64,000 nucleotides of DNA from contig JBFLZG010000066.1 in assembly GCA_040756235.1 (NCBI GenBank), positions 5,891-69,890 on the forward strand, in the 5' to 3' direction. Of the stretch, positions 12,199-48,769 are shown piece by piece; within the stretch, counting starts at the first letter, position 1; every line of letters begins with the position of its first letter. The notes below the pieces were generated by a model that worked only from the letters and a program-made list of their open reading frames with translations, ran no database searches and was not told the origin of the DNA. This DNA is from a bacterium. GTDB lineage: Bacteria > Desulfobacterota > DSWW01. The position numbers and the translations under genes were made by a program.

Positions 12199-13125
12199 AT
12201 GATCGTCGACGTCCATTACCACCAAATACCGATGTTGCCCGAGGAGCTGGCCCCCCTGCTCGCCGAAGACCTCGTGAGGGCGGCCAAGATCATGGGCGTC
12301 AAGGCAGAGAAGGCCGAGCTGATCAAGGCGCTCCTCGGGAGCCAGGACATGTCCGGGGAGAAGCTCGCCCGGCGCATGGAGACCGCGGGCATCGATTTCC
12401 AGGTGATCTGCGCGGTCGACAACGCCGCGAGCCCGCACTTCAGCCCCGAGCTGGCGCAGCTTCAGAACCAGCTCGTGGCCGATGTCGCCCGTAAGCACCC
12501 CGGGAAGATGATCGCGCTGGCCGGAGTCGACCCGAGGCGGCCCGACGCCCTCGACATGCTCAAACGGTGCTTCGAGGAGCTCGGCATGCGAGGCTTGAAA
12601 TACCACAGCGACTACGGGTTCGACCCGGCCGGGCCCGAGTCGTACAAGCTGCTGGCCTACCTCGAACGGAACGACGGGATCCTGCTCGCCCACACCGGGC
12701 CCCTGCCGCCGCCCTCGCGCAGCAAGTTCGCGGAGACGGCGCTGCTGGCGGACATCGCAGTCGACTTTCCCTCCCTGAGGGTCATCGCCGCGCACATGGG
12801 GCAGTGCAACTGGCGGCCCTTCGCCTCGCTGGCGACCATGCAGCCGAACCTCTACGGGGACCTCGCCATGTGGGCCCCTTACGCGTTCGGCAAGTACGAG
12901 CTCTTCTGCCGGGAGCTGCGGGACCTGCTGGACTATGCGGGCGCCGACAAGGTCCTGTTCGCCACGGACGATCCCATCTCCTGCGCCGTGGTGGATACCC
13001 GCGAGTGGATCCGGGTGATCCGCGAGCTGCCCGAGAAGGCGCCGGCCGGGATCCGGTTCACCCGGGAAGAGGTGGACGGGATCCTCGGAGGCAACGCGGC
13101 GCGCATGCTGCGGCTGAGCGCCTGA
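12199..13125 (+). CDS. Amidohydrolase_2 family metal-dependent hydrolase/decarboxylase
   Basis: IVDVHYH, GLKYH, AHTG, AAHMG, KVLFATDDP and ILGGNAAR. Confidence 0.88.
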   Translation: MIVDVHYHQIPMLPEELAPLLAEDLVRAAKIMGVKAEKAELIKALLGSQDMSGEKLARRMETAGIDFQVICAVDNAASPHFSPELAQLQNQLVADVARKHPGKMIALAGVDPRRPDALDMLKRCFEELGMRGLKYHSDYGFDPAGPESYKLLAYLERNDGILLAHTGPLPPPSRSKFAETALLADIAVDFPSLRVIAAHMGQCNWRPFASLATMQPNLYGDLAMWAPYAFGKYELFCRELRDLLDYAGADKVLFATDDPISCAVVDTREWIRVIRELPEKAPAGIRFTREEVDGILGGNAARMLRLSA

Positions 13126-13566: not shown

Positions 13567-14700
13567 ATGGATTACGATCTCCCCAAGGAAATCAAGCTGG
13601 TCAAGAGGACCGTCCGCGAGTTCGCGGAACAGACCGTGGCCCCGCTCGTCCCCAAGATGGAGGAGAACGACGAGTTCCCGAGCGAGCTCGTCCGGCAGAT
13701 GGGGGAGCTCGGGCTGCTCGGGCTGATCACGCCCGTCGAGTACGGCGGCTCCAACCTCGGGTACCTGGCGCGGATGGTCGCGATCGAGGAGCTTAGCCGC
13801 GTCGCTCCGCCGCTGGGTCTCGCCCTGCAGTGCCACCACATGGGGGTCGCGGCGATCGTCGATTTCGGCACTCCCGAGCAGAAGGCCAGGTTCCTGCCGG
13901 TGCTGGCGCGAGGAGACTTCCTGGGCTGCTGCGCCATCACGGAGCCGACCGGGGGATCGGACCTGCTCGGCATCACGAGCACGGCGCGGCCGGTCGGCGA
14001 CGGCTATCTCCTGAACGGCCGCAAGTGCTTCATCACGAACAGCCATCTGACACGTTCCGCCGTCGTGGTGGCCAAGACCGGAGAGGGGCCCAAGGGGATC
14101 AGCGCCTTCGTCGTGGAAGCAGACCGCCCGGGCTACGCGGCGGGGCGGCACGAGCGCAAGATGGGGCTGCGCGGCTCCGACACCGGCGAGATCATCATGA
14201 AAGACTGCCTCGTTCCGCGGGAAAACCTGCTCGGGAACGAAGGGGAGGGGCTGTCCATCGCGCTCAAGACGATCGGCGAAGTCGGGCGGGCCGGGATGGC
14301 CTCGACGGCGCTCGGGATCCTGCAGGCGTCCTACGAGGAGGCCGTCAAGTTCGCCAAGGACCGCGTGCTCTACGGCAGGCCGATCGCGAACCTCCAGGCC
14401 ATCCAGTGGAGCATCGCGGAGATCTACATGCAGGTCGAGGCGGCCCGCCTGATCTGCTACCGCGCGGCCTGGCTCAAGGACAGCGGCCGGGACTGCGCCC
14501 TCGAGACCACGCTGGCCAAGACGTACGCCACGGAAGCCGCGGTCCAGGCCGCCAAGAAGGCGCTCGAGGTGCACGGGGCCGCGGGCACCATGCTCGAGTA
14601 CCCGATCCAGCGCCTGTTCCGGGACGCCATGGTCTGCGTCTCCGCGGGCGGCACCACGGAGATCGGCAAGGTCGTGATTTCGCGCTCCGCCCTGAGCTGA
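13567..14700 (+). CDS. Acyl-CoA dehydrogenase (butyryl-CoA dehydrogenase-like)
   Basis: AITEPTGGSD, LNGRKCFITN, KMGLRGSDT, R..YGRPI..LQ and HGAAG. The C-terminal VSAGGTTEI lacks the usual YEG Glu. Confidence 0.92.
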   Translation: MDYDLPKEIKLVKRTVREFAEQTVAPLVPKMEENDEFPSELVRQMGELGLLGLITPVEYGGSNLGYLARMVAIEELSRVAPPLGLALQCHHMGVAAIVDFGTPEQKARFLPVLARGDFLGCCAITEPTGGSDLLGITSTARPVGDGYLLNGRKCFITNSHLTRSAVVVAKTGEGPKGISAFVVEADRPGYAAGRHERKMGLRGSDTGEIIMKDCLVPRENLLGNEGEGLSIALKTIGEVGRAGMASTALGILQASYEEAVKFAKDRVLYGRPIANLQAIQWSIAEIYMQVEAARLICYRAAWLKDSGRDCALETTLAKTYATEAAVQAAKKALEVHGAAGTMLEYPIQRLFRDAMVCVSAGGTTEIGKVVISRSALS

Positions 14701-14733: not shown

Positions 14734-15537
14734 ATGCAGAAACTCGATATCCTCGTGTGCATCAAGCCGGTTCCCGACCCCAAGAGGTGGGACAAGCTCA
14801 AGCTCGACCCGGAAACCATGCTGCTCGCCCGGAGCGAGGTTCCGCCGGTCCTCAACCCCCTCGACCGGAACGCCCTCGAACAGGCGGTGATGTTCAAGAC
14901 CGCATCCGGCGGGACGGTCACTCTCCTCACCATGGCGCCTCCGGCAGCCGAGGAGCAGCTCATGGAAGCGCTCGCCATGGGGTGCGACCGTGCGGTCCTG
15001 CTCACCGACCGGGCCTTTGCCGGGGCGGACACGCTGGCCACCGCGCGCACGCTGGCGGCGGCCATCCGCAAGATCGGCCGCTATGATCTCATCTTCTGCG
15101 GAGGCTACTCGCTGGACGGATCCACCGCGCAGGTGGGCCCGCAGGTGGCGGAGCTGCTCGGAATCCCCGACCTCACGCTCGCTACCCGGGTCGAGATCCG
15201 GGGCGACGGGCTGCGGGTAGCCTGCAAAGTGGACGACGGGCAGGTGGTCTACGAAGTCGACCTCCCGGCACTGGTCTCCTTTGCCCAGGAAGCGAACAAG
15301 CCTCGCCTGCCCAGCATGGTCGGCCTCAAGAAGGCCGCGGAGGCGGAGATCGTGAAGTGGACGGCCCGCGACCTCGGGCTGGATCCCGCAGAGGTCGGCC
15401 TGCGCGGCTCGCCCACGCAGATGCAGAACGTCTTCAAGGCGCCCGTGGGCCGCAAGGGCGAGATGCTGCAGGGGACGCCGGACGAGCTGGCCCAGGCGCT
15501 CCTCGCCAAGATCAAATCCGAACGCGTCCTGAGCTAG
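14734..15537 (+). CDS. etfB: Electron transfer flavoprotein beta subunit
   Basis: VCIKPVPD, NPLDRNALEQA, FAGADTLATA, DGSTAQVGP, PRLPS and GSPT. Confidence 0.93.
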   Translation: MQKLDILVCIKPVPDPKRWDKLKLDPETMLLARSEVPPVLNPLDRNALEQAVMFKTASGGTVTLLTMAPPAAEEQLMEALAMGCDRAVLLTDRAFAGADTLATARTLAAAIRKIGRYDLIFCGGYSLDGSTAQVGPQVAELLGIPDLTLATRVEIRGDGLRVACKVDDGQVVYEVDLPALVSFAQEANKPRLPSMVGLKKAAEAEIVKWTARDLGLDPAEVGLRGSPTQMQNVFKAPVGRKGEMLQGTPDELAQALLAKIKSERVLS

Positions 15538-15759: not shown

Positions 15760-18267
15760 ATGAAGAAAACGAAAAAGAACGCCATCTGGGTCTTTGCTTC
15801 GCACCACAGCGGCACGATCGATGCGGTCAGCCTCGAGCTGCTCGGGAAAGGGCAGCAAATCGCGGAGGCAGCCGGCGCTCCCCTGGAGGCCGTCCTGTTC
15901 GGCGGCGGGGGCGGGAACGGGGGCGGTGTGGGGGTCGAAAGCCTGCTGGCCGGGCTCGAGCACTCGGGCGCGTCGGCCGTCCGCCTGGTCGAAGACCCCC
16001 GCCTGGCCGCCTTCTCCTCGGCCGTCTACGCGCACGTGCTCGCCGAGCTCGTGCGGCGCCACGACCCGCAGGTGCTGCTCCTCGGCTCGGACAACCGCAA
16101 CGCCTCCCTCGCGGCGCGGGTCGCGGCGCGGCTCGGCACCGGCCTGAGCGCCCACTGCGTAGACCTCAAATTCGCAGGAAGCAACCTGGTCCAGACCGTG
16201 CCCGGGTTCGGCGGCAACCTCATGGCCAACATCGTGTGCCCGAGCCGGCGGCCGCAGATGGCGACCGTGACCGCCGGCATCTTCCAGCAGGCCGAGCGCA
16301 AGGACGTGACGGCCGCGGTCGTGCGGGAGGAAGTGCCGATCCCGGACGGGATCCGCAGCGCCCGCCAGATCGAGGTGGTGCGCCGCGAAGCCGGGGGGCG
16401 GGCGGACCTCGCCAAGGCGGAGGTCGTGGTGGCCGGCGGGTTCGGCGTCGGTTCGAAAGAGAGCTGGGACCTGATCGAGGACCTCGCCCGCGCCCTGGGC
16501 GGAGTCGTGGGAGCCACCCGGCCGCCCGTGGATGAAGGGTGGGCCGGGGCCGATCAGATGATCGGCGCGAGCGGCAAGGTCATCGCGCCGCGCCTCTACG
16601 TGGCCGTGGGCGTCTCGGGCATGATGCACCACACGGTCGGCGTGCGCGGGGCCAAGACGATCGTGGCGATCAACAGCGACCAGAAGGCCCCGATCTTCAC
16701 CATGGCCGACTACGGAATCGTGGGAGACCTGAAGCAGGTCCTGCCGGCCATCCTCTCCCGGATCACGACCGGCGAGGGCCTCGCGCCGCAGATCGAACCG
16801 CCGGGTAACACTCGGACCGCGGAGGACTACAAGGCGAGCCTGCGCGCGATGAAGCCGAACATGTACAAGCGCGGCCGGCTCATCGATGACCCGGTGAGCG
16901 ATCCCTTCACCAGCCGCACCGTGGCGGGCCACGCGCAGATCTTCGAGCTGGCGCGCGACCCCCGCTACCAGGAGCTGGTGACGACGATCTCGCACCTTAC
17001 GGGCAAGCGCGTTTCCCGCTACCTCACGGTCGTCCGGTCCGCCGAGGACCAGATCGCCAACAGCAAGATGAAGCGTCTCATGTTCCAGATGACCGGCACC
17101 TGCACCGGCGGGCGTTGCGTGGGCTGGACCGGGCTGAACGCGCTCTGGTCCACGACCTGGGACATGGACCGCGAGTTCGGCACGGACTATCACGAACGGC
17201 TCAAGAGCTGGCTGATCAGTGCCCAGGAGCGGGATATCACTTGCTCCGGGGCCCTTTCGGACCCCAAGGGGAACCGCAGAGCCTCCCCCTCGAAGCAGCC
17301 GGATCCGGACAGTTTCCTCAGGATCGTCAAGCGGCGCAAGGACGGCGTGGTGGTGCGCGGTGCCAAGATCATGATCTGCGGCACGGCCGCGGCGAACGAG
17401 ATCTTCGTCATGCCCGGGACGCGCATGAGACGTGAGGAGGCGGATTACGCCGTCTCCTTCGCCACCCCCAAGGACGCGCCCGGGATCACGATCGTCGAGG
17501 CGCGGCACCCTTCGGACGATCGCGAGCTCGAAGAAGGATTCGACAACCCGGTCACGCGCGGCGGCATCACCCAGGCCTACATCTTTTTCGAGGACGTCTT
17601 CGTTCCGAACGAGCGCCTCTTCATGGCCGGCGAGTACAGCTACGCCGGCGAGGCGGTCTTCCGGTTCACACTCCCCTACCGATCGGCGATCGGCGGGTGC
17701 GTGGCCGGACAGGGCGACGTCATGGTCGGCGCGGCGATCCTGATCGCCCGGGCCAACGGCCTGGATGAAAGGGTCTTTCGCGACAAGCTCATCGAGATGG
17801 TGGTGAACAACGAGACGACCTTCAGCGTGGGCGTGGCGGCGGCCGCGCTCGGCTCACAACACCCCTCCGGAGCGTGGCTGCCCAATCCCCTGCTGGCCCA
17901 CGCGAACAAGACGCACGTGGCCACGCTGCCTTACGAGACCAAGCGCCTGACCCAGGAGATCGCGGGCGGCATCGCCGAGACGGGCTGCATGCCGTCCTAC
18001 AAGGATTTCATCGACAGCCGATACGGCCACCTCATCCAGAAGTATCTGAAGGCGAACTCCCCGGCCGAGACGCGCATGCGGATCGCCCGGCTCATCGAGT
18101 GGCTGACCCTGGGCGCCGGCGTGCCGGGCTGCATGCACGGCGGAGGGTCGCCGGACGGCGCCCGGATGGTCGTCTACGCGCAGGCGGATTTCGAGGGCAT
18201 GATCGAGATGGCCAAGCGGGTCGGCGGGATTTCGGACATCTCGCTGGCCAAGCCGCCGGGGAAATAG
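15760..18267 (+). CDS. Fusion of electron transfer flavoprotein alpha subunit and a 4-hydroxybutyryl-CoA dehydratase (AbfD/HpaB-family)-like domain
   Basis: EtfA motifs (GLSAHC, PGFGGN, RPQMATV, GATRPPVD, GVSG..HH, AINSD..APIF) are continuous in one frame with AbfD-like motifs (TAEDYKASL, CTGGRC, DPKGNR, RGAK, GGC..GD, MHGGGSP). Confidence 0.9.
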   Translation: MKKTKKNAIWVFASHHSGTIDAVSLELLGKGQQIAEAAGAPLEAVLFGGGGGNGGGVGVESLLAGLEHSGASAVRLVEDPRLAAFSSAVYAHVLAELVRRHDPQVLLLGSDNRNASLAARVAARLGTGLSAHCVDLKFAGSNLVQTVPGFGGNLMANIVCPSRRPQMATVTAGIFQQAERKDVTAAVVREEVPIPDGIRSARQIEVVRREAGGRADLAKAEVVVAGGFGVGSKESWDLIEDLARALGGVVGATRPPVDEGWAGADQMIGASGKVIAPRLYVAVGVSGMMHHTVGVRGAKTIVAINSDQKAPIFTMADYGIVGDLKQVLPAILSRITTGEGLAPQIEPPGNTRTAEDYKASLRAMKPNMYKRGRLIDDPVSDPFTSRTVAGHAQIFELARDPRYQELVTTISHLTGKRVSRYLTVVRSAEDQIANSKMKRLMFQMTGTCTGGRCVGWTGLNALWSTTWDMDREFGTDYHERLKSWLISAQERDITCSGALSDPKGNRRASPSKQPDPDSFLRIVKRRKDGVVVRGAKIMICGTAAANEIFVMPGTRMRREEADYAVSFATPKDAPGITIVEARHPSDDRELEEGFDNPVTRGGITQAYIFFEDVFVPNERLFMAGEYSYAGEAVFRFTLPYRSAIGGCVAGQGDVMVGAAILIARANGLDERVFRDKLIEMVVNNETTFSVGVAAAALGSQHPSGAWLPNPLLAHANKTHVATLPYETKRLTQEIAGGIAETGCMPSYKDFIDSRYGHLIQKYLKANSPAETRMRIARLIEWLTLGAGVPGCMHGGGSPDGARMVVYAQADFEGMIEMAKRVGGISDISLAKPPGK

Positions 18268-18566: not shown

Positions 18567-18737
18567 CCGGCGCTCTTCCGGTCATCCCCGGCCAGGGTTG
18601 CAGCGGGCATGGCAGGGGTGCTGCTTCCCGCGTCCGGCGGGCCAGCTCTTGTAGGGGCGACGCATGCGTCGCCCGCGAGCGTGGGAAGCAGGGGCTGGAT
18701 GCCGGCCTGCGCCGGAATGACGGAGAAGAGGGCGGCG

Positions 18738-19226
18738 TTGACCACGATCGAGTCGAAGATCCGGACCGCCCGGGAGCTCTTTGGGACGTACGCGGATGTA
18801 TGGCTGCTGGACTCCCGCATCCGGGCCCTGGTCGGCGAGCTCCGGACGCAATTGGATGCGTCCCGAAGAGCGATGTCCGAGGCAGGGATCCCCACCCTCT
18901 GCGTGCGTTGCGAGACGGAGGAGGGGGGCAGTTGCTGCGGGGCCGGGATCGAGGACCGCTACGGCGTCCCGCTCCTGGCCGTGAACCAGCTCCTGGGCTG
19001 CACCCTGCCCGATCGCCGGACGGGGGAAGAGAACTGCTACTTCCTCGGCGCGCAGGGCTGCCGGCTTGCCGCCCGCCACGTGCTCTGCGTCAACTACCTC
19101 TGCCGGAAGATCCAGAGAAGGCTGCCGCGCGAAGCGCTGGTGCGCGTGCAGAACGTGACCGGCGCCGAGCTGGAGACCGCCTTCCGACTCGAAGAGACGC
19201 TCAGACAGTCGATGCGGCCAGCCTGA
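18738..19226 (+). CDS. Cys-rich hypothetical protein (YkgJ/Fe-S cluster-like)
   Basis: CVRC..SCC, CYFL..GC.L..RH..CVNYLC. Start is TTG 18738 or ATG 18717. Confidence 0.7.
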   Translation: MTTIESKIRTARELFGTYADVWLLDSRIRALVGELRTQLDASRRAMSEAGIPTLCVRCETEEGGSCCGAGIEDRYGVPLLAVNQLLGCTLPDRRTGEENCYFLGAQGCRLAARHVLCVNYLCRKIQRRLPREALVRVQNVTGAELETAFRLEETLRQSMRPA

Positions 19227-20363: not shown

Positions 20364-22835
20364 ATGGCAAGAGCACTCGACCTCAAGGTTTTGTCGCCCC
20401 AGGAAGAGCGCATCGAGCAGGGCGAGCCGATCGGTCTCGCAACCGCAGAGGCGCAGCGCAAGCGCGCGCGCATCCACCGTATGCTCGCGGGCTTCCGGGA
20501 CAAGCCGATCCGCATCAACCTCGAAAGGGCGCGCCTTTTGACCGAGTCTCTGCGCCGAACCGAAGGCCAGCCGGTCGTGCTCAGATGGGGCAAGGCGGTG
20601 GCTCACATCCTGCGGAACGTGTCGGTGCGCATCGAAGAGGACGAGCTCATCGTCGGCACCGCGGGCCCGCCGGGCCGCTACGCGATCTTCTTCCCCGAGC
20701 TGGAGGAGAAGTTCTTCTCGCACGAGGTAAACCCCAGCAAGCCCGGGGATCTTCTGGCCCTCACGGAGGAGGACGTCCGCGCCATCAACGAGGAGCTCCG
20801 GCCGTACTGGCAGGGCAGGCAGTACCACACGGCCTACATCAACGCCCTTCCCGAGGATACGCGCGCGCTTCTGGAATTGTATTGCCTGGTCATTCCCACG
20901 GCCACGGCCCGATCGAGCCTGGCGTGGAACCATGACTACGAGAAGGTCCTCCGGCGCGGGGTCGGAGGGATCCGGCGGGAGGCCGCAGAGAAGCTGGCCT
21001 CGCTCGACCCGTTCGATCCCAAGGCGAAGGTCGAGAAGGAGCCGTTCCTCGAGGCGGTGGTCCTGGTCTGCGAAGCGATCGTGGAGCTCGCCCATCGCTA
21101 TGCCGCGCTGGCCCGCGCCATGGCCGAGGGGGAGCGAAGCCAGAAGAGAAAGCAGGAACTCCTCGAGATCGCCGCGGTCTGCGAGCGGGTGCCGGAGCAC
21201 CCGGCCCGGACCTTCCGCGAGGCGGTCCAGTCCCAGTGGCTCATCCAGGTCGTCTCCCGTCTCGAGCAGCGCATCGGGGGGACGATCGGCAACGGCCGCA
21301 TCGACCAGTACCTGTATCCTTTCTACAGGAGCGATCTCGACCAAGGCCGGCTGACCGAGGACGAGGCGCTGGAGCTCGTCGAATGCCTGTGGATCGGCAT
21401 GGCCCGCAACGTCGAGATCTACACGTCGCCCGGGAGCCTCTCCTTCACGGACGGCTACGCCCACTGGGAGGCCACCACGATCGGCGGTGTGGACAGGGAC
21501 GGCAAGGACGCCACCAACGATCTGTCCTACCTCATGCTCCGGTCCAAGCGGGAATTCCCGCTGAACTACCCGGACCTGGCCGCCCGCATCCATGCGGGGA
21601 CCCCGGAGCCGTTCCTGCACGCCATCGCCGAGACGATCAAGGAAGGTACCGGCTTCCCGAAGCTCTTCTTCGATGAGGAGATCATCCCTCTCCTGCTGGC
21701 CAAGGGCGGGGCGGTCGCGGAGGCAAACGACTACTGCATCTGCGGCTGCACCGAGGCCAAGATGATCAATCGGGACGCCGTGATGACCGGGTGCGCCTGG
21801 GTGAATCTCGGCGCCGCGGTGGAGATGACCTTGCGCGGCGGCAGGCTGAAGGTCTTCGGAGACAGGCAGACCGGCGCGCCGACGGGCGACCCCAAGGAAT
21901 TCAAGTCCTACGAGGACCTCTGGGGCGCCTTCCGCAGCCAGCTCGAGCTCCTGCTCCGGCACACGTTCGTCCAGCAGTACGTGGCGGACACCCTCAAGGC
22001 GGACTTCATCGCCGCGCCTATGTCGTCCATGCTCCACGACCTCGCCATGCGCGCGTGCAAGGACCTGCACGCCGGCCCGATCGAAGGCGCCCTCTACCTG
22101 GGCTACATCGATACCTTGGGCTTTGCCACTGCGGTCGACTCGCTGGCCGCCATCCGCAAGCTCGTCTTCGACGAGCGCAAGCTCACGATGGGAGAGCTCC
22201 TGGAGGCTGTGGACGCCAATTTCGAAGGCCGCGAGGCGATCCGGCAGCTTTGCCTGAATGCGCCCAAGTACGGCAACAACGATCCCGATGCGGACCGCAT
22301 CGGCCGGGACATCGAAGAGCTCGGGGTGCGGCTGACCCGGAGGTACCCGTCCGCCTTCGGCGGAGAGCTGGACATCCGGTACGTGACGATCACCGCCCAT
22401 GTGCCCTTCGGCGCCGTGCTGGCCGCCACGCCCGACGGCCGCAAGGCCGGGGAGCCGATCTCCGAGGGCGTGAGCCCTTCGCAGGGGGCGGACCGGAAAG
22501 GCCCCACGGCGACGCTCGCCTCGATCGCCAGCACCAAGGCCTCCGGATACCGGGAGCGCGCAGCGCGCCTGCTCAACATGAAGATCTCGCCCTCGGCCGT
22601 GGCCGGCCCCGGGGGCACGAAGAAGCTCATGTCCCTGATCCGGACTGCCTGCGACCTCAAGATGTGGCACCTGCAGTTCAACATCATCAACCGCGAGACG
22701 CTCATCGCCGCCAAGAAGAATCCTGACAAGTATCGGAACCTGCTCGTGCGGGTGGCCGGCTACAGCGCCTATTTCGTGGACCTCACGCCGCAGCTTCAGG
22801 ACGAGATCATTCACCGGACCGAGCACAGCTTTTGA
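20364..22835 (+). CDS. Glycyl radical enzyme, isethionate sulfite-lyase (IslA/HpsG)-like clade
   Basis: Gly loop RVAGYSAYF, Cys loop GCTE, and clade motifs GYAHWEA, YPDLAARIH, RSS..W.HDY and HVPFG. Confidence 0.9.
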   Translation: MARALDLKVLSPQEERIEQGEPIGLATAEAQRKRARIHRMLAGFRDKPIRINLERARLLTESLRRTEGQPVVLRWGKAVAHILRNVSVRIEEDELIVGTAGPPGRYAIFFPELEEKFFSHEVNPSKPGDLLALTEEDVRAINEELRPYWQGRQYHTAYINALPEDTRALLELYCLVIPTATARSSLAWNHDYEKVLRRGVGGIRREAAEKLASLDPFDPKAKVEKEPFLEAVVLVCEAIVELAHRYAALARAMAEGERSQKRKQELLEIAAVCERVPEHPARTFREAVQSQWLIQVVSRLEQRIGGTIGNGRIDQYLYPFYRSDLDQGRLTEDEALELVECLWIGMARNVEIYTSPGSLSFTDGYAHWEATTIGGVDRDGKDATNDLSYLMLRSKREFPLNYPDLAARIHAGTPEPFLHAIAETIKEGTGFPKLFFDEEIIPLLLAKGGAVAEANDYCICGCTEAKMINRDAVMTGCAWVNLGAAVEMTLRGGRLKVFGDRQTGAPTGDPKEFKSYEDLWGAFRSQLELLLRHTFVQQYVADTLKADFIAAPMSSMLHDLAMRACKDLHAGPIEGALYLGYIDTLGFATAVDSLAAIRKLVFDERKLTMGELLEAVDANFEGREAIRQLCLNAPKYGNNDPDADRIGRDIEELGVRLTRRYPSAFGGELDIRYVTITAHVPFGAVLAATPDGRKAGEPISEGVSPSQGADRKGPTATLASIASTKASGYRERAARLLNMKISPSAVAGPGGTKKLMSLIRTACDLKMWHLQFNIINRETLIAAKKNPDKYRNLLVRVAGYSAYFVDLTPQLQDEIIHRTEHSF

Positions 22836-23050
22836 GACGCCGGGGGGTGGTCTACGGGGGAGCAGGGACTGGATTCCGGCCTGCGCCGGAATGACGGAGA
22901 AGCGGACGCTTGTGTTACGTCTTCCCGGGCCAAGGCCGCCGGAGCGGCCGCGAGCCGGGATCCCGGGGCCCAGAGGGATTCCCGCTTGCGCGGGAATGAC
23001 GGCCCTCTATGACACGGGTCCTGCGCGGAAATGACGAAAGACGGCTCCCC

Positions 23051-23983
23051 ATGACCACATCGAACAGCGTGACCGGCCTCGTCTTCAACATCCAGAAATT
23101 CTCGCTCCACGACGGGGCCGGGATTCGGACACTCGTCTTTCTCAAGGGATGCCCGCTGGCGTGCTTGTGGTGCGCGAACCCCGAGGGGCAGTCGCCCGCC
23201 GCCGAGCTGGCCTTGAGCTTGCGGCGCTGCATCGGCACCAAGGAGTGCGGCCGCTGCCTCGAGGCCTGCGATCAGCGGGCCATTCGCGCCGCACCGGAAG
23301 GAGGCCTCTCGATCGACCGGGACGCCTGCGTCCTGTGCGGCCGCTGCGTGGACGCCTGCCCTTGCGGGGCGCTCGAGCTCATGGGGAGGCCGATGACCGT
23401 CGAGGAGGTGGTCCGCGCAGTCGAGGAGGACGGCAGCTTCTACGCCCGCTCGGGCGGCGGGCTGACGCTGAGCGGCGGGGAGCCGCTGCTGCAGATCGCG
23501 TTCGTCGAGCGGCTCCTCGCGACGGCGCGCGGCAGGGGGATCGACACGGCCCTGGAAACCTCGGGGCTCTGCAGGTGGGAGGACCTGGAGGCGGCGTGCA
23601 GGAGCCTCGACCACCTCTTCTACGACATCAAGATCCTGGACACAGCGAAGCACCGGGAGGGCACAGGGGTCGGAAACGAGCGGATCCTGGAGAACCTCGA
23701 GAGGCTCTGCAGCATGCGCACGCACCTTCCGGTGACCGTGAGGACGCCGGTCATTCCGCGGTTCAACGATGCGCCCGCCGACATCCAGGCAGTGGCAGCC
23801 TTCGTGTCACGGTTGCCCGGGCCGGTCTCCTACGAGCTCCTCCCCTACCACGGCTTCGGGGAGCCCAAGTACGGCCACCTCGGCAAGACGTACCCGCTCC
23901 GAGGTGCGTCGCCCCCGGCCCGGGAGCGCATGGCGGCCTTGCAGGCGCTCGTGCCGGAGAGGCTGCGCCCAACTGGAAGATGA
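23051..23983 (+). CDS. Glycyl-radical enzyme activating protein (radical SAM with 2x[4Fe-4S] insert)
   Basis: IQKFSLHDGAGIRT, GCPLACLWCANPE, ferredoxin insert CVLCGRCVDACP, SGGEP and LLPYH. Confidence 0.95.
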   Translation: MTTSNSVTGLVFNIQKFSLHDGAGIRTLVFLKGCPLACLWCANPEGQSPAAELALSLRRCIGTKECGRCLEACDQRAIRAAPEGGLSIDRDACVLCGRCVDACPCGALELMGRPMTVEEVVRAVEEDGSFYARSGGGLTLSGGEPLLQIAFVERLLATARGRGIDTALETSGLCRWEDLEAACRSLDHLFYDIKILDTAKHREGTGVGNERILENLERLCSMRTHLPVTVRTPVIPRFNDAPADIQAVAAFVSRLPGPVSYELLPYHGFGEPKYGHLGKTYPLRGASPPARERMAALQALVPERLRPTGR

Positions 23984-45584: not shown

Positions 45585-46898
45585 ATGGCAAAAGTCTACT
45601 ACATGGACGACCGCTCCCAGTCGATTCAGACGAGCCTGGTTGCCAAGACGATGACCCTGTTCGACGCCGCCGGCTTCCGGGAGCTCGTCCAGCCCGGGCA
45701 GGTGGTGGCCGTGAAGGTCCACATGGGCGAGTTCAACAACACGGCCTACATCCGCCCCGTGTACGTGCGGGCGCTCGTGGACAAGATCCGGAGCCTGGGC
45801 GGGGAGCCGATGGTGGTGGATACGACCACGCTGCCCTACCACCCGCACACCTCCCGGTCCACGTCCCTGGACTACCTGAAGACGGTGGCCCGAAACGGCT
45901 TCACCGAGGCGACCGTGGGCTGCCCGATCGTGATCGCGGACGGGTACATCGGGACGGATGATGTCCACGTCGACCTGCCTGAAGGTTTCATTCTGAAGGA
46001 GCAGTACGTCGCCACCGGCATCGCTCTGGCCGACGCCATGATCGCGCTCTCTCATTTCAAAGGCCATCCCATGGGCACTTACGGAGGGGCGATCAAGAAT
46101 ATCGGGGTGGGCTGCGCTTCCAAGAGGGGCAAGCTCAACCTGCACATGGGGGGCCACGACCGCTACGGGCTCAAGAGCCGTCACTGGATGCCGGAGCGGT
46201 GCCTGAAGGAGGAATGCCCCCAGTACCAGGTCTGTCTCGATCTCTGTCCGACCGGCGCCATCCGCCACACCCCGGACACGGTCGAGTTCGTGCGGGACAA
46301 GTGCATCGGGTGCCTGGCCTGCATCGGCGTCGTGACCATGTGCGGCGTGGCCTTCCTGCCCGACGACTACTTCGATGTGACCGCGGCCGCCATCGCCGAT
46401 TCGGCCCTGGCGGTGACCAAGGCCATCGGCGCGGGCAAGATCGGATATATCAACATGGCCCTGGACATCTCGCCCTGGTGTGACTGCGTGAACTACAGCG
46501 ACCGGCCCATCGTGCCCAACCTGGGGATCTTCGCGTCCTGGGACGCGGTGGCCATCGACTCGGCCTGCATCCGCAAGGCCAAGGATGCGGCCGGCATGCC
46601 GGACTCGATGGCCATGACCAAGGGCACCATGAGCCCGGGCACGGCCAAGTTCTCCGCCTGCGGCTCTTTCCTCGGGGTGAGCGAGGAGATCCAGCCCAAC
46701 GTGGGGCAGAAGATCGGATTGGGAACGCGCCAGTTCGAGCTCGAGGAGCTGCAGCCGCCCGAGGACCCCGCGCCGTTCCTGTGCACTCAGGTGCCGGCCG
46801 GCGCCAAGCTGGGCAAGCTGTTCGCGAAGAAAGGGGATCTCATCCCGGCAAAGGGGTTCAAGAGGGTCGAGGAAGTCGAGATCGAGGACATGAGATAG
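45585..46898 (+). CDS. DUF362 domain Fe-S protein
   Basis: VKVHMGE, HFKGH..YGGAIKNIGVGC, ferredoxin insert, SPWCDC and DAVAID. Confidence 0.88.
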   Translation: MAKVYYMDDRSQSIQTSLVAKTMTLFDAAGFRELVQPGQVVAVKVHMGEFNNTAYIRPVYVRALVDKIRSLGGEPMVVDTTTLPYHPHTSRSTSLDYLKTVARNGFTEATVGCPIVIADGYIGTDDVHVDLPEGFILKEQYVATGIALADAMIALSHFKGHPMGTYGGAIKNIGVGCASKRGKLNLHMGGHDRYGLKSRHWMPERCLKEECPQYQVCLDLCPTGAIRHTPDTVEFVRDKCIGCLACIGVVTMCGVAFLPDDYFDVTAAAIADSALAVTKAIGAGKIGYINMALDISPWCDCVNYSDRPIVPNLGIFASWDAVAIDSACIRKAKDAAGMPDSMAMTKGTMSPGTAKFSACGSFLGVSEEIQPNVGQKIGLGTRQFELEELQPPEDPAPFLCTQVPAGAKLGKLFAKKGDLIPAKGFKRVEEVEIEDMR

Positions 46899-46912
46899 CT
46901 TGGAGGGATGCC

Positions 46913-48769
46913 ATGCTTGGTTACATGGGAAAGATCCTTCGCGTGAACCTGTCTGACGGCAAGATCACCCGGCAGGACGTCGATCCGCAGATGGCCCAGA
47001 GCTACATCGGAGGAGCCGGGTTTGCGACCCAGCTCATCTTCGAGGAGGTGCCGGCCAAGTGCGATCCTCTGGGGCCGGACAACCGGCTGGTCTTCATGAC
47101 CGGACCGGTCACCGGAACGGCCTTCCCTACGTCCGGCCGCTTCGTCGTGGCCACGAAGTCGCCGCTGACCGGTATCCTGGCGACGTCCGCTTCCTCGGGC
47201 TTCTGGGGGGTCGAGCTGAAGCGCACCGGCCACGACGGCATCATCTTCGAAGGCAAGGCCGCTCGGCCCGTGTACCTGGAGATCCGGGACGACGAGGTTG
47301 CGCTGAAGGACGCCTCGGATCTCCGGGGCAAGGACGCCTATGAGACGCAGGACGTCCTGAGAGAGCGGTTGGGCAAGAAGAGGGCGCGGGTCGCCTGCAT
47401 CGGGCCCGCCGGAGAGAAGCTCGCCCCGATCGCCTGCGTGATGAACGATGCCGGACGGGCTGCCGGCCGCGGCGGCGTCGGCGCGGTCATGGGCTCGAAG
47501 AACTTGAAGGCCATCGTGGTCCTTGGGTCGCGCAAGATCGAGACCGCTGCGGACGAGTTTCTCAAGCTCATGACCAAGGAGGTCATCAAAGGGATCCAGG
47601 CGGACCCGTTCGCCGGGTTCTTCACGAAGTGGGGCACGGCTTTCAGCATGGACATGGGCTGGGCCGCCGGGGACGTGCCGGTCAAGAACTGGCAGGTCGG
47701 CCAGTGGGGGGAGGGCTGCACGAAGCTGGGGGGTGCGCGGATGGCCGCGACCATCCTCAAGCCGCACACGGGCGCGTGCCACAACTGCCCGATCCGGTGC
47801 GCCCGTTGGGTCCAGGTCCCGGAAGGCCGCTTCGCCTATGAAGGGCCCGGCCCTGAGTACGAGACCCTGGGCGCCTTCGGGACCATGCTCCTCATCGACG
47901 ACCTGGAGGCGGTCTCCTGGATGGGCGAGCTGTGCAACAAGTACGGGCTGGACACCATCTCCGCGGGCTGCACCATCGCCTGGGCCATGGAGGCTTACGA
48001 GAAAGGGGCGATCACCCAAAAAGACACGGGCGGGCTCGAGCTCACCTGGGGCAACGTGGACGCGGCGGTCCGGCTCGTGGAGCAGATGGGGCGCGTGGAG
48101 GGGTTCGGCGCCCTGCTGGCCCAGGGGTCCCGCGAAGCGGCACGGAAAGTCGGAAAAGGCTCCGAGGAGTACGCCATCCAGGTCAAGGGGCTCGAGGTCC
48201 CGATGCACGATCCGCGGTGCTACTTCAGCCTGGCGGTGAACTACGCGACCGGCACGAGGGGCGCTTGCCACGTGCAGGGCGGCTCCTACGTGGTCGAGAT
48301 CGGCGTGATCAGCCCGGAGACCGGCCTCTCGCACCGGCAGGGGCGGTTCGACAAGAAGAACAAGGGGCTGGCGGCCAAGGCCTTCCAGGACCTGAGCGCG
48401 ATCTACAACTCCACCGCGGTCTGCATGTTCGCCGCCATGGGGCTGCAGCCGTCGCACCTGGGCACCCTGCTCAGCATCGTCACGGGCATGCCCCACAACG
48501 CCTTCACGGTCCTGCAGGCGGGCGAGCGGATCATCAACCTCCAGCGGGCCTTCGCGTGCCGGGAAGGGATTTCGAAAAAGGACGACGTGCTGCCCAAGCG
48601 GCTCGTCACGCCTCTGCCGGACGGCGGGGCGGCGGGAAAGGCGGCCGATCTCGAATACCAACTCAAAGAGTACTATCAGCTGAGGCAGTGGGACGACAAC
48701 GGGATTCCGAAGCGGGAGAAGCTCGAGGCGCTGGGCCTCGCCCGGGCTGCCAGGGACCTGCACGGGTGA
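46913..48769 (+). CDS. aor: Aldehyde:ferredoxin oxidoreductase family (tungsten/AOR)
   Basis: KSPLTG, IGPAGE, AGRGGVGAVMGSKNLKA, CHNCPIRC, EYET, GLDTIS and RGACH. Confidence 0.93.
   Translation: MLGYMGKILRVNLSDGKITRQDVDPQMAQSYIGGAGFATQLIFEEVPAKCDPLGPDNRLVFMTGPVTGTAFPTSGRFVVATKSPLTGILATSASSGFWGVELKRTGHDGIIFEGKAARPVYLEIRDDEVALKDASDLRGKDAYETQDVLRERLGKKRARVACIGPAGEKLAPIACVMNDAGRAAGRGGVGAVMGSKNLKAIVVLGSRKIETAADEFLKLMTKEVIKGIQADPFAGFFTKWGTAFSMDMGWAAGDVPVKNWQVGQWGEGCTKLGGARMAATILKPHTGACHNCPIRCARWVQVPEGRFAYEGPGPEYETLGAFGTMLLIDDLEAVSWMGELCNKYGLDTISAGCTIAWAMEAYEKGAITQKDTGGLELTWGNVDAAVRLVEQMGRVEGFGALLAQGSREAARKVGKGSEEYAIQVKGLEVPMHDPRCYFSLAVNYATGTRGACHVQGGSYVVEIGVISPETGLSHRQGRFDKKNKGLAAKAFQDLSAIYNSTAVCMFAAMGLQPSHLGTLLSIVTGMPHNAFTVLQAGERIINLQRAFACREGISKKDDVLPKRLVTPLPDGGAAGKAADLEYQLKEYYQLRQWDDNGIPKREKLEALGLARAARDLHG

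Follow-up and report, generated by a model that had tools for sequence, protein, structure and literature searches.

A conserved AbfD-like domain fused to EtfA, with an altered active site and a possible role in carbon–sulfur bond cleavage

What does a protein of the 4-hydroxybutyryl-CoA dehydratase (AbfD) kind do when it has kept the cysteines of its iron–sulfur (Fe-S) cluster but exchanged the other residues of its active site? The question is raised by a 64,000-nucleotide stretch of contig JBFLZG010000066.1 from a bacterium of the Desulfobacterota (assembly GCA_040756235.1), here called the window, which encodes an AbfD-like domain that we name AbfX, its residue numbers starting at position 16813. 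The original prediction for this DNA had described the domain, from position 16812, as the product of a distinct subfamily that may carry a fully Cys-ligated electron-transfer cluster. Judged from its sequence, AbfX is a real, conserved and uncharacterised variant of the AbfD kind, distinct from the dehydratase.

The best solved relative of AbfX is AbfD of Clostridium aminobutyricum (1U8V; phmmer E 5.1e-103, 38% identity). The AlphaFold model of AbfX has a predicted local distance difference test (pLDDT) value of 90.5 and matches 1u8v in Foldseek with a template-modelling (TM) score of 0.93 and a root-mean-square deviation of 2.0, while pLDDT falls below 50 at residues 435-441, the loop that holds Cys440. 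According to one report, the cluster of AbfD is ligated by Cys99, Cys103, Cys299 and His292, and Thr190, Glu257, Tyr296 and Glu455 are important for activity (bioRxiv 2020.02.05.935528). All five motif comparisons on which the original prediction was built hold, both in the sequence and in a HMMER alignment to 1U8V: the three Fe-S cysteines are retained as Cys97, Cys102 and Cys296, and all five non-Cys key residues (His292, Thr190, Glu257, Tyr296, Glu455) are changed, to Tyr, Cys, Gln, Ile and Gly. Also replaced are Lys300 and Ala460 (Val297 and Gly444 in AbfX), which we take to be functionally notable residues of AbfD.

These changes are shared by a whole clade. In a tree of 206 sequences, AbfX belongs to a clade of 109 (FastTree support 1.0, stem 0.46); the input comprised the fetched loci, 17 proteins from the homologue search and representatives of 430-620 amino acids, shorter and longer ones being excluded. 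By named records, members occur in Acidobacteriota, Elusimicrobiota, Chloroflexota, Bacillota, Thermoplasmatota and Asgard archaea. Each of the three cluster cysteines is present in 109/109 members. The position of His292 holds Tyr in 106 members, His in 2 and Glu in 1, and that of Tyr296 holds Ile in 103, Met in 6 and Tyr in none; Val297 is found in 108/109, Gly439 in 108/109, Cys440 in 107/109 and Gly444 in 109/109, with Glu at the 455 position in none. The strictest-conserved new residues, Glu389 and Cys392, lie in an ETGC insertion absent from the list of the original prediction, and the Cys392 column is a gap in 97/97 sequences outside the clade. The 119 best homologues are 64-85% identical to AbfX, and GCMHGGGSP is present in 119/119. 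Decay into a pseudogene is thus rejected by the clade-wide conservation and by the identities of the homologues. The same genome encodes a second, canonical AbfD on another contig (C62), 39% identical to AbfX, which keeps HRQNYGGC and ESMHGAGSP. With the key residues replaced clade-wide and a separate canonical AbfD in the genome, the claim that AbfX is a distinct conserved subfamily and not a canonical 4-hydroxybutyryl-CoA dehydratase is borne out. In a literature search, most subscription papers and all supplements being outside its reach, no title or abstract opening described this subfamily.

The exchange of His292 for Tyr was considered as the family hallmark and rejected, two members keeping His; ETGC is the better marker. 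These two (L058:9296-10792 and L060:9009-10502) have His as the ligand residue while carrying every one of the new cysteines, which makes them useful natural controls for the question of cluster ligation. For the fully Cys-ligated electron-transfer cluster of the original prediction no support was obtained. As a candidate fourth ligand Cys392 is as good as Cys440, and either may serve as a base, as an exchangeable ligand or as one partner of a disulfide.

The AbfX domain does not stand by itself: what had been seen as a domain starting at 16812 is the C-terminal half of an 835-residue open reading frame whose N-terminal half is EtfA, the alpha subunit of an electron transfer flavoprotein (ETF), with the Pfam domains ETF (residues 9-192), ETF_alpha (216-296), HpaB_N (353-622) and HpaB (630-821). 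An artefact is ruled out, since 93 of the 102 closest homologues are full-length fusions of at least 800 amino acids. Comparison of loci further revealed that the gene order acyl-CoA dehydrogenase (ACAD) homologue, EtfB, EtfA::AbfX is a conserved operon (Table 1). The amidohydrolase gene upstream was rejected as a partner, as it does not recur beside AbfX in the 50 loci compared.

Table 1. Genes, domains and active-site motifs of the AbfX locus (window positions; fractions are counts among the 109 clade members)
Feature	Position	Strand	Remarks
EtfA::AbfX fusion gene (P0001), 835 aa	15760..18267	+	single open frame
EtfA domain (N-terminal half of fusion)	15760..16770	+	TVPGFGG, Val for motif Arg
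AbfX domain (C-terminal half), 484 aa	16813..18267	+	AbfD fold, predicted FAD (flavin adenine dinucleotide) and [4Fe-4S]
CTGGRC (AbfD CF-QRC)	17101..17118	+	cluster Cys97 and Cys102 = AbfD Cys99 and Cys103; 109/109 each
MIC for AbfD HQT (AKIMICG vs AKAHQTG)	17371..17379	+	Cys189 at Thr190 position; Cys 97/109, Ala 12/109, Thr 0
Gln254 at Glu257 position (GGITQA vs GGQEA)	17572..17574	+	Gln 104/109, Glu 0/109
YRSAIGGCV (PYRSAIGGCV vs YHRQSYGGCK)	17677..17703	+	Tyr289 (AbfD His292), Ile293 (Tyr296), Cys296 (Cys299, third cluster cysteine), Val297 (Lys300)
ETGC insertion	17977..17988	+	clade-specific Glu389 and Cys392; 109/109 each
GCMHGG (GCMHGGGSP vs ESMHGAGSP)	18127..18144	+	Gly439 (Glu455), Cys440 (Ser456), Gly444 (Ala460)
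AcdX, ACAD homologue	13567..14700	+	Glu absent from both catalytic positions: SAGGT replaces IYEGT, and helix G has VGR
EtfB	14734..15537	+	Pfam PF01012
Amidohydrolase_2 gene	12199..13125	+	directly upstream of AcdX

The ACAD homologue of the operon, which we call AcdX, is itself unusual. Aligned to 5LNX, 5OL2 and 1JQI, AcdX proteins have Gly or Ala for the Glu of IYEGT and Gly at the helix-G position, two positions that we take to be the catalytic Glu sites numbered 376 in medium-chain acyl-CoA dehydrogenase and 254 in isovaleryl-CoA dehydrogenase; the window protein has the canonical Glu at neither. A quick tree placed 20 of the 34 ACADs from AbfX loci in one AcdX clade (approximate likelihood-ratio support, SH-aLRT, 100), and the other 14, six of them from Thermoplasmatota, fell outside it and mostly keep IYEGT. 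Among 120 AcdX-like homologues, 110 fitted the motif pattern, with Glu in none, and 10 did not fit it.

The EtfA half carries a comparable change, as the Arg of the TRP(A/T)FGG motif of bifurcating ETFs is Val in the window (aligned to 5OL2, 6FAH and 7KOE); Val takes its place in 93/93 fused EtfA, and Val or Ile in 11/17 stand-alone EtfA, two of which keep Arg and four of which have no motif match. By alignment, we take this Arg to be the equivalent of R146 of PMC10279923. That report gives the bifurcating-flavin Arg as 99% conserved (PMC10279923). On this equivalence the linked EtfA lacks the Arg (or Lys) of a bifurcating ETF, and the ETF is read as non-bifurcating in the model proposed below.

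To what extent do AbfX and AcdX belong together? In a sample of 401 genomes of the window's phylum, AbfX was found in 26 and AcdX in 33 (both in 20, AbfX only in 6, AcdX only in 13, neither in 362). AcdX thus accompanied AbfX in 20/26 genomes, as against 13/375 of the others, with AcdX called at 540 bits or more (the next score was 444), three to four candidates scored per genome and related genomes not independent of each other. AcdX without AbfX mostly takes the form of a TetR-AcdX-EtfB-EtfA cassette; in one case a Pct-type CoA-transferase and MaoC accompany it. Since AcdX-EtfB-EtfA cassettes occur without AbfX, the ETF goes with the ACAD, the two forming a module that can be separated from AbfX. 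Stand-alone TetR-AcdX-EtfB-EtfA cassettes, with AbfX not found or located elsewhere, were seen at L247-L253, L258 and L259, and they form a candidate acrylate/acryloyl-CoA detoxification module.

Having placed AbfX in its family and operon, we considered which reaction it might catalyse. The substrate is probably an organosulfur acyl-CoA of some kind. With somewhat less than even confidence, we favour the reading that AbfX is a predicted C-S lyase converting 3-(methylthio)- or 3-mercaptopropionyl-CoA to acryloyl-CoA and methanethiol or H2S, with the ACAD and ETF reducing the acryloyl-CoA. What has been observed is the fold of AbfX, the retention of the cluster cysteines and of motifs in the FAD region, the loss across the clade of AbfD's radical and acid-base residues, the fusion to EtfA and the contexts in which the gene lies.

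The mechanism that we propose runs as follows. The substrate would be made as a CoA thioester by a PaaK-like ligase or a CoA-transferase acting on the (imported) acid; alternatively, deaminated methionine or homocysteine would yield it through oxidative decarboxylation by a 2-oxoacid:ferredoxin oxidoreductase. The chemistry that leads from methionine or homocysteine to 3-(methylthio)- or 3-mercaptopropionyl-CoA is established, and we infer its assignment here. With its three Cys ligands kept, the cluster would offer its fourth iron as a Lewis acid to the departing sulfur, Cys440, Cys392 or Tyr289 being a possible exchangeable ligand of that iron. AbfX would take the alpha-proton, with Glu389 as candidate base, use an oxyanion site lined by FAD and expel the thiolate via the open iron; in Fe-S cysteine desulfidases, thiolate expulsion is aided by an open cluster iron. 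Such a beta-elimination requires no more than an alpha-proton base and an oxyanion site, and the loss of the radical machinery (Thr190, Glu257, Tyr296, Glu455) would be accounted for by this. In sulfur clusters the freed thiol may feed CysK or MetY, which can use sulfide and methanethiol, respectively, and in catabolic operons like that of the window the carbon would go to propionyl-CoA. The toxic acryloyl-CoA would be reduced by AcdX with a non-bifurcating ETF, yielding propionyl-CoA, and the fusion would hold lyase and reductase together so that acryloyl-CoA is cleared at the site of its formation.

The substrate of this reading is suggested by the gene neighbourhoods. In a survey within 8 kb that set 158 clade loci against 46 loci of other AbfD-like genes, two of the latter probably being partial clade members, ETF genes occurred in 55/158 against 0/46, aldehyde:ferredoxin oxidoreductase (AOR) genes in 12/158 against 0/46, ornithine cyclodeaminase (OCD)-like dehydrogenases in 4/158 against 0/46, oxoacid:ferredoxin oxidoreductases in 11/158 against 2/46 and propionyl-CoA genes (MCM, MeaB, PccB, PrpD) in 14/158 against 1/46; the BLAST panel was built from clade neighbours, which biases the zero counts of the controls, and related loci are not independent, L178 and L179 being near-identical. 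CoA ligases or transferases were also found near AbfX in this survey.

Sulfur and methionine contexts appear on three separate branches of the AbfX tree. A subclade of eight loci (L107, L108, L124, L126, L145, L148, L178, L179; support 0.986) has in 8/8 a PaaK-like ligase together with CysK, MetY, MetQNI or an SsuA/TauA-like ATP-binding cassette (ABC) binding protein. The order in L108 is MetY, MetQNI, AbfX, PaaK-like ligase, rhodanese, ABC transporter and CysK, then encapsulin with cysteine desulfurase, ThiF and JAB; that in L107 is CysK, AbfX, ligase, ABC, MetY-like, ThiF and JAB; and that in L126 is CysK, sulfate ABC, AbfX, ligase, ABC and corrinoid methyltransferase genes. On another branch, L102 has a related binding protein (61%), a Pct-type CoA-transferase, cystathionine enzymes, a sulfate ABC transporter and sulfur carriers, and on the third L172 has crotonase, MetY, an OCD/alanine-dehydrogenase-like gene, AbfX and PorCDAB. 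A single clade (support 0.896, long branch 0.40) holds the PaaK-like ligases from both the sulfur loci and the AcdX/ETF loci. This links both contexts to a similar substrate and is the bridge to the locus type of the window. In one genome assembled as a single contig (G556, 99% complete), AbfX lies in a sulfur cluster and no PF00441 match, hence no ACAD, is present, indicating that AbfX does not need an ACAD. The occurrence of AbfX in this closed, ACAD-free genome, accompanied just by a CoA-activating enzyme and a transporter, is more in keeping with an acyl-CoA-transforming enzyme that works by itself than with a subunit for electron transfer. A prediction set beforehand held once, in that G556 encodes an AcuI/YhdH acryloyl-CoA reductase scoring over its curated cut-off, 36 kb from AbfX.

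Several observations weigh against the C-S lyase reading. Sulfur-assimilation genes are not enriched family-wide (7/158 loci against 3/46 controls), and a CysK-like gene also neighbours the canonical AbfD of the window's genome. In 50 loci, neither the window locus nor the fused clade (Acidobacteriota, Elusimicrobiota) showed a conserved sulfur neighbour or a CoA ligase in the operon. The AcuI of G556 sits outside the AbfX cluster, and homologues of AcuI are present in numerous bacteria that ordinarily do not encounter acrylate, according to one report (PMC4029986); in G461 (100% complete), where AbfX also lies in a sulfur cluster, neither AcdX nor an AcuI over the cut-off was found. The ligase bridge has exceptions, as the ligase beside AbfX in L091 is outside the clade and that of L228 is inside it but stands by a second AbfD-like subfamily, which shares the ligase clade and sometimes AcdX. 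The best solved relatives of the ABC binding protein are distant sulfonate or nitrate binders (E 1.7e-12), and in L172 MetY beside a methionine-degrading route would be partly futile. Finally, it is not obvious why a simple beta-elimination should require FAD or two further conserved cysteines. Solved-structure searches with the binding protein of a tripartite ATP-independent periplasmic (TRAP) transporter, the OCD-like protein and the acyl-CoA synthetase named no substrate.

The second AbfD-like subfamily (GTC[NI]YRC, HRMxCGGxCK, GTWHGAG) keeps His292, has another extra Cys and adjoins AbfX in several loci; its members include L077:9326-10768, L076:15476-17041, L228:8180-9724 and L262:9738-11204. 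In L262 it forms an operon with AcdX and ETF, and in L228 it stands with a ligase of the same PaaK-like clade, an aldehyde dehydrogenase-like gene and corrinoid-type genes. The AbfD fold comprises many further subfamilies with altered ligand sets at 28-43% identity (P0125-P0270), and 8 to 11 AbfD-fold paralogues occur within single genomes (G082, G003). Most Thermoplasmatales loci have a DUF6125 gene (L021:9459-9998) beside AbfX or not far from it; the cluster of this gene is present in 18/51 loci.

Could the substrate be free of sulfur? AbfX might be an eliminase or isomerase of a sulfur-free acyl-CoA, for example an amino- or hydroxyacyl-CoA of amino-acid fermentation, with only one subclade recruited for sulfur; 4-aminobutyryl-CoA from proline (by an OCD-like enzyme and an oxoacid oxidoreductase) and 3-/4-hydroxy or methoxy acyl-CoA are candidates that fall under the same estimate, and we hold the whole to be unlikely, if the most serious of the alternatives. 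Most loci carry only CoA-activating enzymes, AOR, ACAD and ETF, and L059, L062, L128, L163 and L185 share CoA-transferase and permease families with a canonical AbfD locus (L078). OCD-like neighbours match alanine dehydrogenase about equally with pyrroline-2-carboxylate reductase, and BbuA, a flavoprotein of the ACAD fold, does a redox-neutral C-N elimination according to its report (bioRxiv 2021.01.25.428109). Against this, the active-site motifs are nearly identical in sulfur and non-sulfur loci, the ligase clade is common to both contexts, and the sulfur contexts lie in three branches.

The electron-transfer role raised by the original prediction survives in a second alternative, in which AbfX is an ETF-coupled redox enzyme, the fourth Cys completing a cluster that relays electrons between ETF and FAD, and Cys392/Cys440 doing disulfide chemistry; an example would be reductive C-S cleavage next to the thioester, from methylthioacetyl- or mercaptoacetyl-CoA to acetyl-CoA, and redox enzyme and example together appear decidedly improbable. 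The fusion kept in 93/102 close homologues, the ETF genes in 55/158 against 0/46 loci and the near-invariance of Cys392 (109/109) and Cys440 (107/109) speak for it. Yet the sulfur-cluster loci lack a nearby ETF, G556 and G461 each having one ETF elsewhere, AcdX-EtfB-EtfA cassettes stand without AbfX, so that the ETF tracks the ACAD, and the propionyl-CoA neighbours point to a C3 skeleton. An all-Cys cluster is further opposed by the 2/109 members that keep His292 together with the new cysteines and by Ala in place of Cys189 in 12/109.

A third alternative, which we regard as more doubtful still, is an oxidised-sulfur leaving group, with 3-sulfopropionyl- or 3-sulfinopropionyl-CoA giving sulfite and acryloyl- or propionyl-CoA. 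It draws on the aliphatic-sulfonate binding protein that is the top solved match of the ABC binding protein, on TRAP and TctABC transporters in some loci and on a glycyl radical enzyme of the IslA/HpsG clade 2 kb downstream in the window. The sulfur clusters examined showed no sulfite reductase, although PF01077 matches occur elsewhere in G461, G556 and G729; the glycyl radical enzyme does not recur next to AbfX among the 50 loci compared; and the oxoacid-oxidoreductase contexts would require homocysteate, a rare amino acid. It is hardly credible that AbfX should be a regular 4-hydroxybutyryl-CoA dehydratase or a copy in decay, for in spite of the shared fold (TM 0.93) and the dehydratase label that many homologues bear at the Joint Genome Institute (JGI), all five non-Cys activity residues are replaced clade-wide, homologues are 73-85% identical across phyla, and a canonical copy is present in the same genome.

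The glycyl radical enzyme, rejected as an AbfX partner for its lack of recurrence in these 50 loci, lies with its activase at 20364-23983 and belongs to the IslA/HpsG sulfonate-lyase clade (5YMR, E 7.6e-283; NF048011, 1161 bits, over the cut-off). Near the active site it has PTATARSS for NETSSFRSS, CGCTEAK for SGCTEAR and RYVTITAH for RYVPFTSH of IslA, and it may act on a sulfonate other than that of IslA. The window also contains a Cys-rich open frame with no Pfam match (18582-19226), between the fusion and a TetR gene, and an AOR homologue at 46781-48766, 29 kb downstream; AOR genes often adjoin AbfX elsewhere.

How does AbfX compare with characterised systems? With AbfD it shares the fold, the residues equivalent to Cys99/Cys103/Cys299 and Arg90, and the TDPKG, NET and MHG motifs, but it differs in the replacement of His292, Thr190, Glu257, Tyr296, Glu455, Lys300 and Ala460, in the ETGC insertion and Cys440, in its fusion to EtfA and in its dedicated, Glu-less ACAD partner. 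HpaB flavin monooxygenases (2YYG and relatives) share the Pfam HpaB_N and HpaB domains but are far more distant (E 9e-34, about 21% identity); AbfX stays below their curated cut-offs (TIGR02309, 133.8 against 480.2; TIGR02310, 62.8 against 885.2), keeps the Fe-S cysteines and sits among anaerobic-metabolism genes. The aerobic DmdB/DmdC/DmdD route of methylmercaptopropionate converts 3-(methylthio)propionate to its CoA ester and releases methanethiol, oxidising first and ending in acetaldehyde, whereas the proposed AbfX route would eliminate directly and reduce to propionyl-CoA. Redox-neutral heteroatom elimination from a CoA thioester is also done by the ACAD-fold 3-sulfinopropionyl-CoA desulfinase, on whose model AcdX scores 234 against a cut-off of 600. 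The acryloyl-CoA reductase-ETF of Clostridium propionicum (AcrABC) likewise pairs an ACAD with an ETF, and the AcrC and AcrA models are the top NCBIfam matches of the window ACAD and EtfA, both far below cut-off (NF042972, 358.8 against 640; AcrA, 234 against 600); ordinary ACADs outscore AcdX on the AcrC model, and AcdX has no catalytic Glu. The C. propionicum enzyme appears non-bifurcating according to one report (PMC5861303). BbuA, the gamma-butyrobetainyl-CoA trimethylamine-lyase, performs heteroatom elimination from a CoA thioester on an ACAD scaffold, and the accessible part of its report, unlike what is predicted for AbfX, describes no Fe-S cluster (bioRxiv 2021.01.25.428109). The methylthio-alkane reductase literature that was checked made no mention of CoA or a dehydratase.

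Returning to the C-S lyase reading, we tentatively extend it to a pathway: AbfX, AcdX and ETF may constitute an O2-independent route from 3-(methylthio)- or 3-mercaptopropionate, derived from methionine or dimethylsulfoniopropionate (DMSP), to propionate and methanethiol or sulfide, built on an undescribed Fe-S flavoprotein lyase, spread over at least six phyla of anaerobic bacteria and archaea, some of which would use it for energy and others to scavenge sulfur. The fusion would then pass acryloyl-CoA on to a reductase that has no catalytic base and does not bifurcate. The stand-alone homologues, with their ligase and binding protein, are easier targets than the fusion, and the list of substrates to test is short and cheap. 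Anoxic organosulfur turnover is poorly understood for DMSP (PMC12596276). If the lyase reading is true, AbfX would be an enzyme for such turnover, linking anaerobic organosulfur breakdown to sulfur recycling, and the radical scaffold of AbfD would have been reused for non-radical C-S cleavage.

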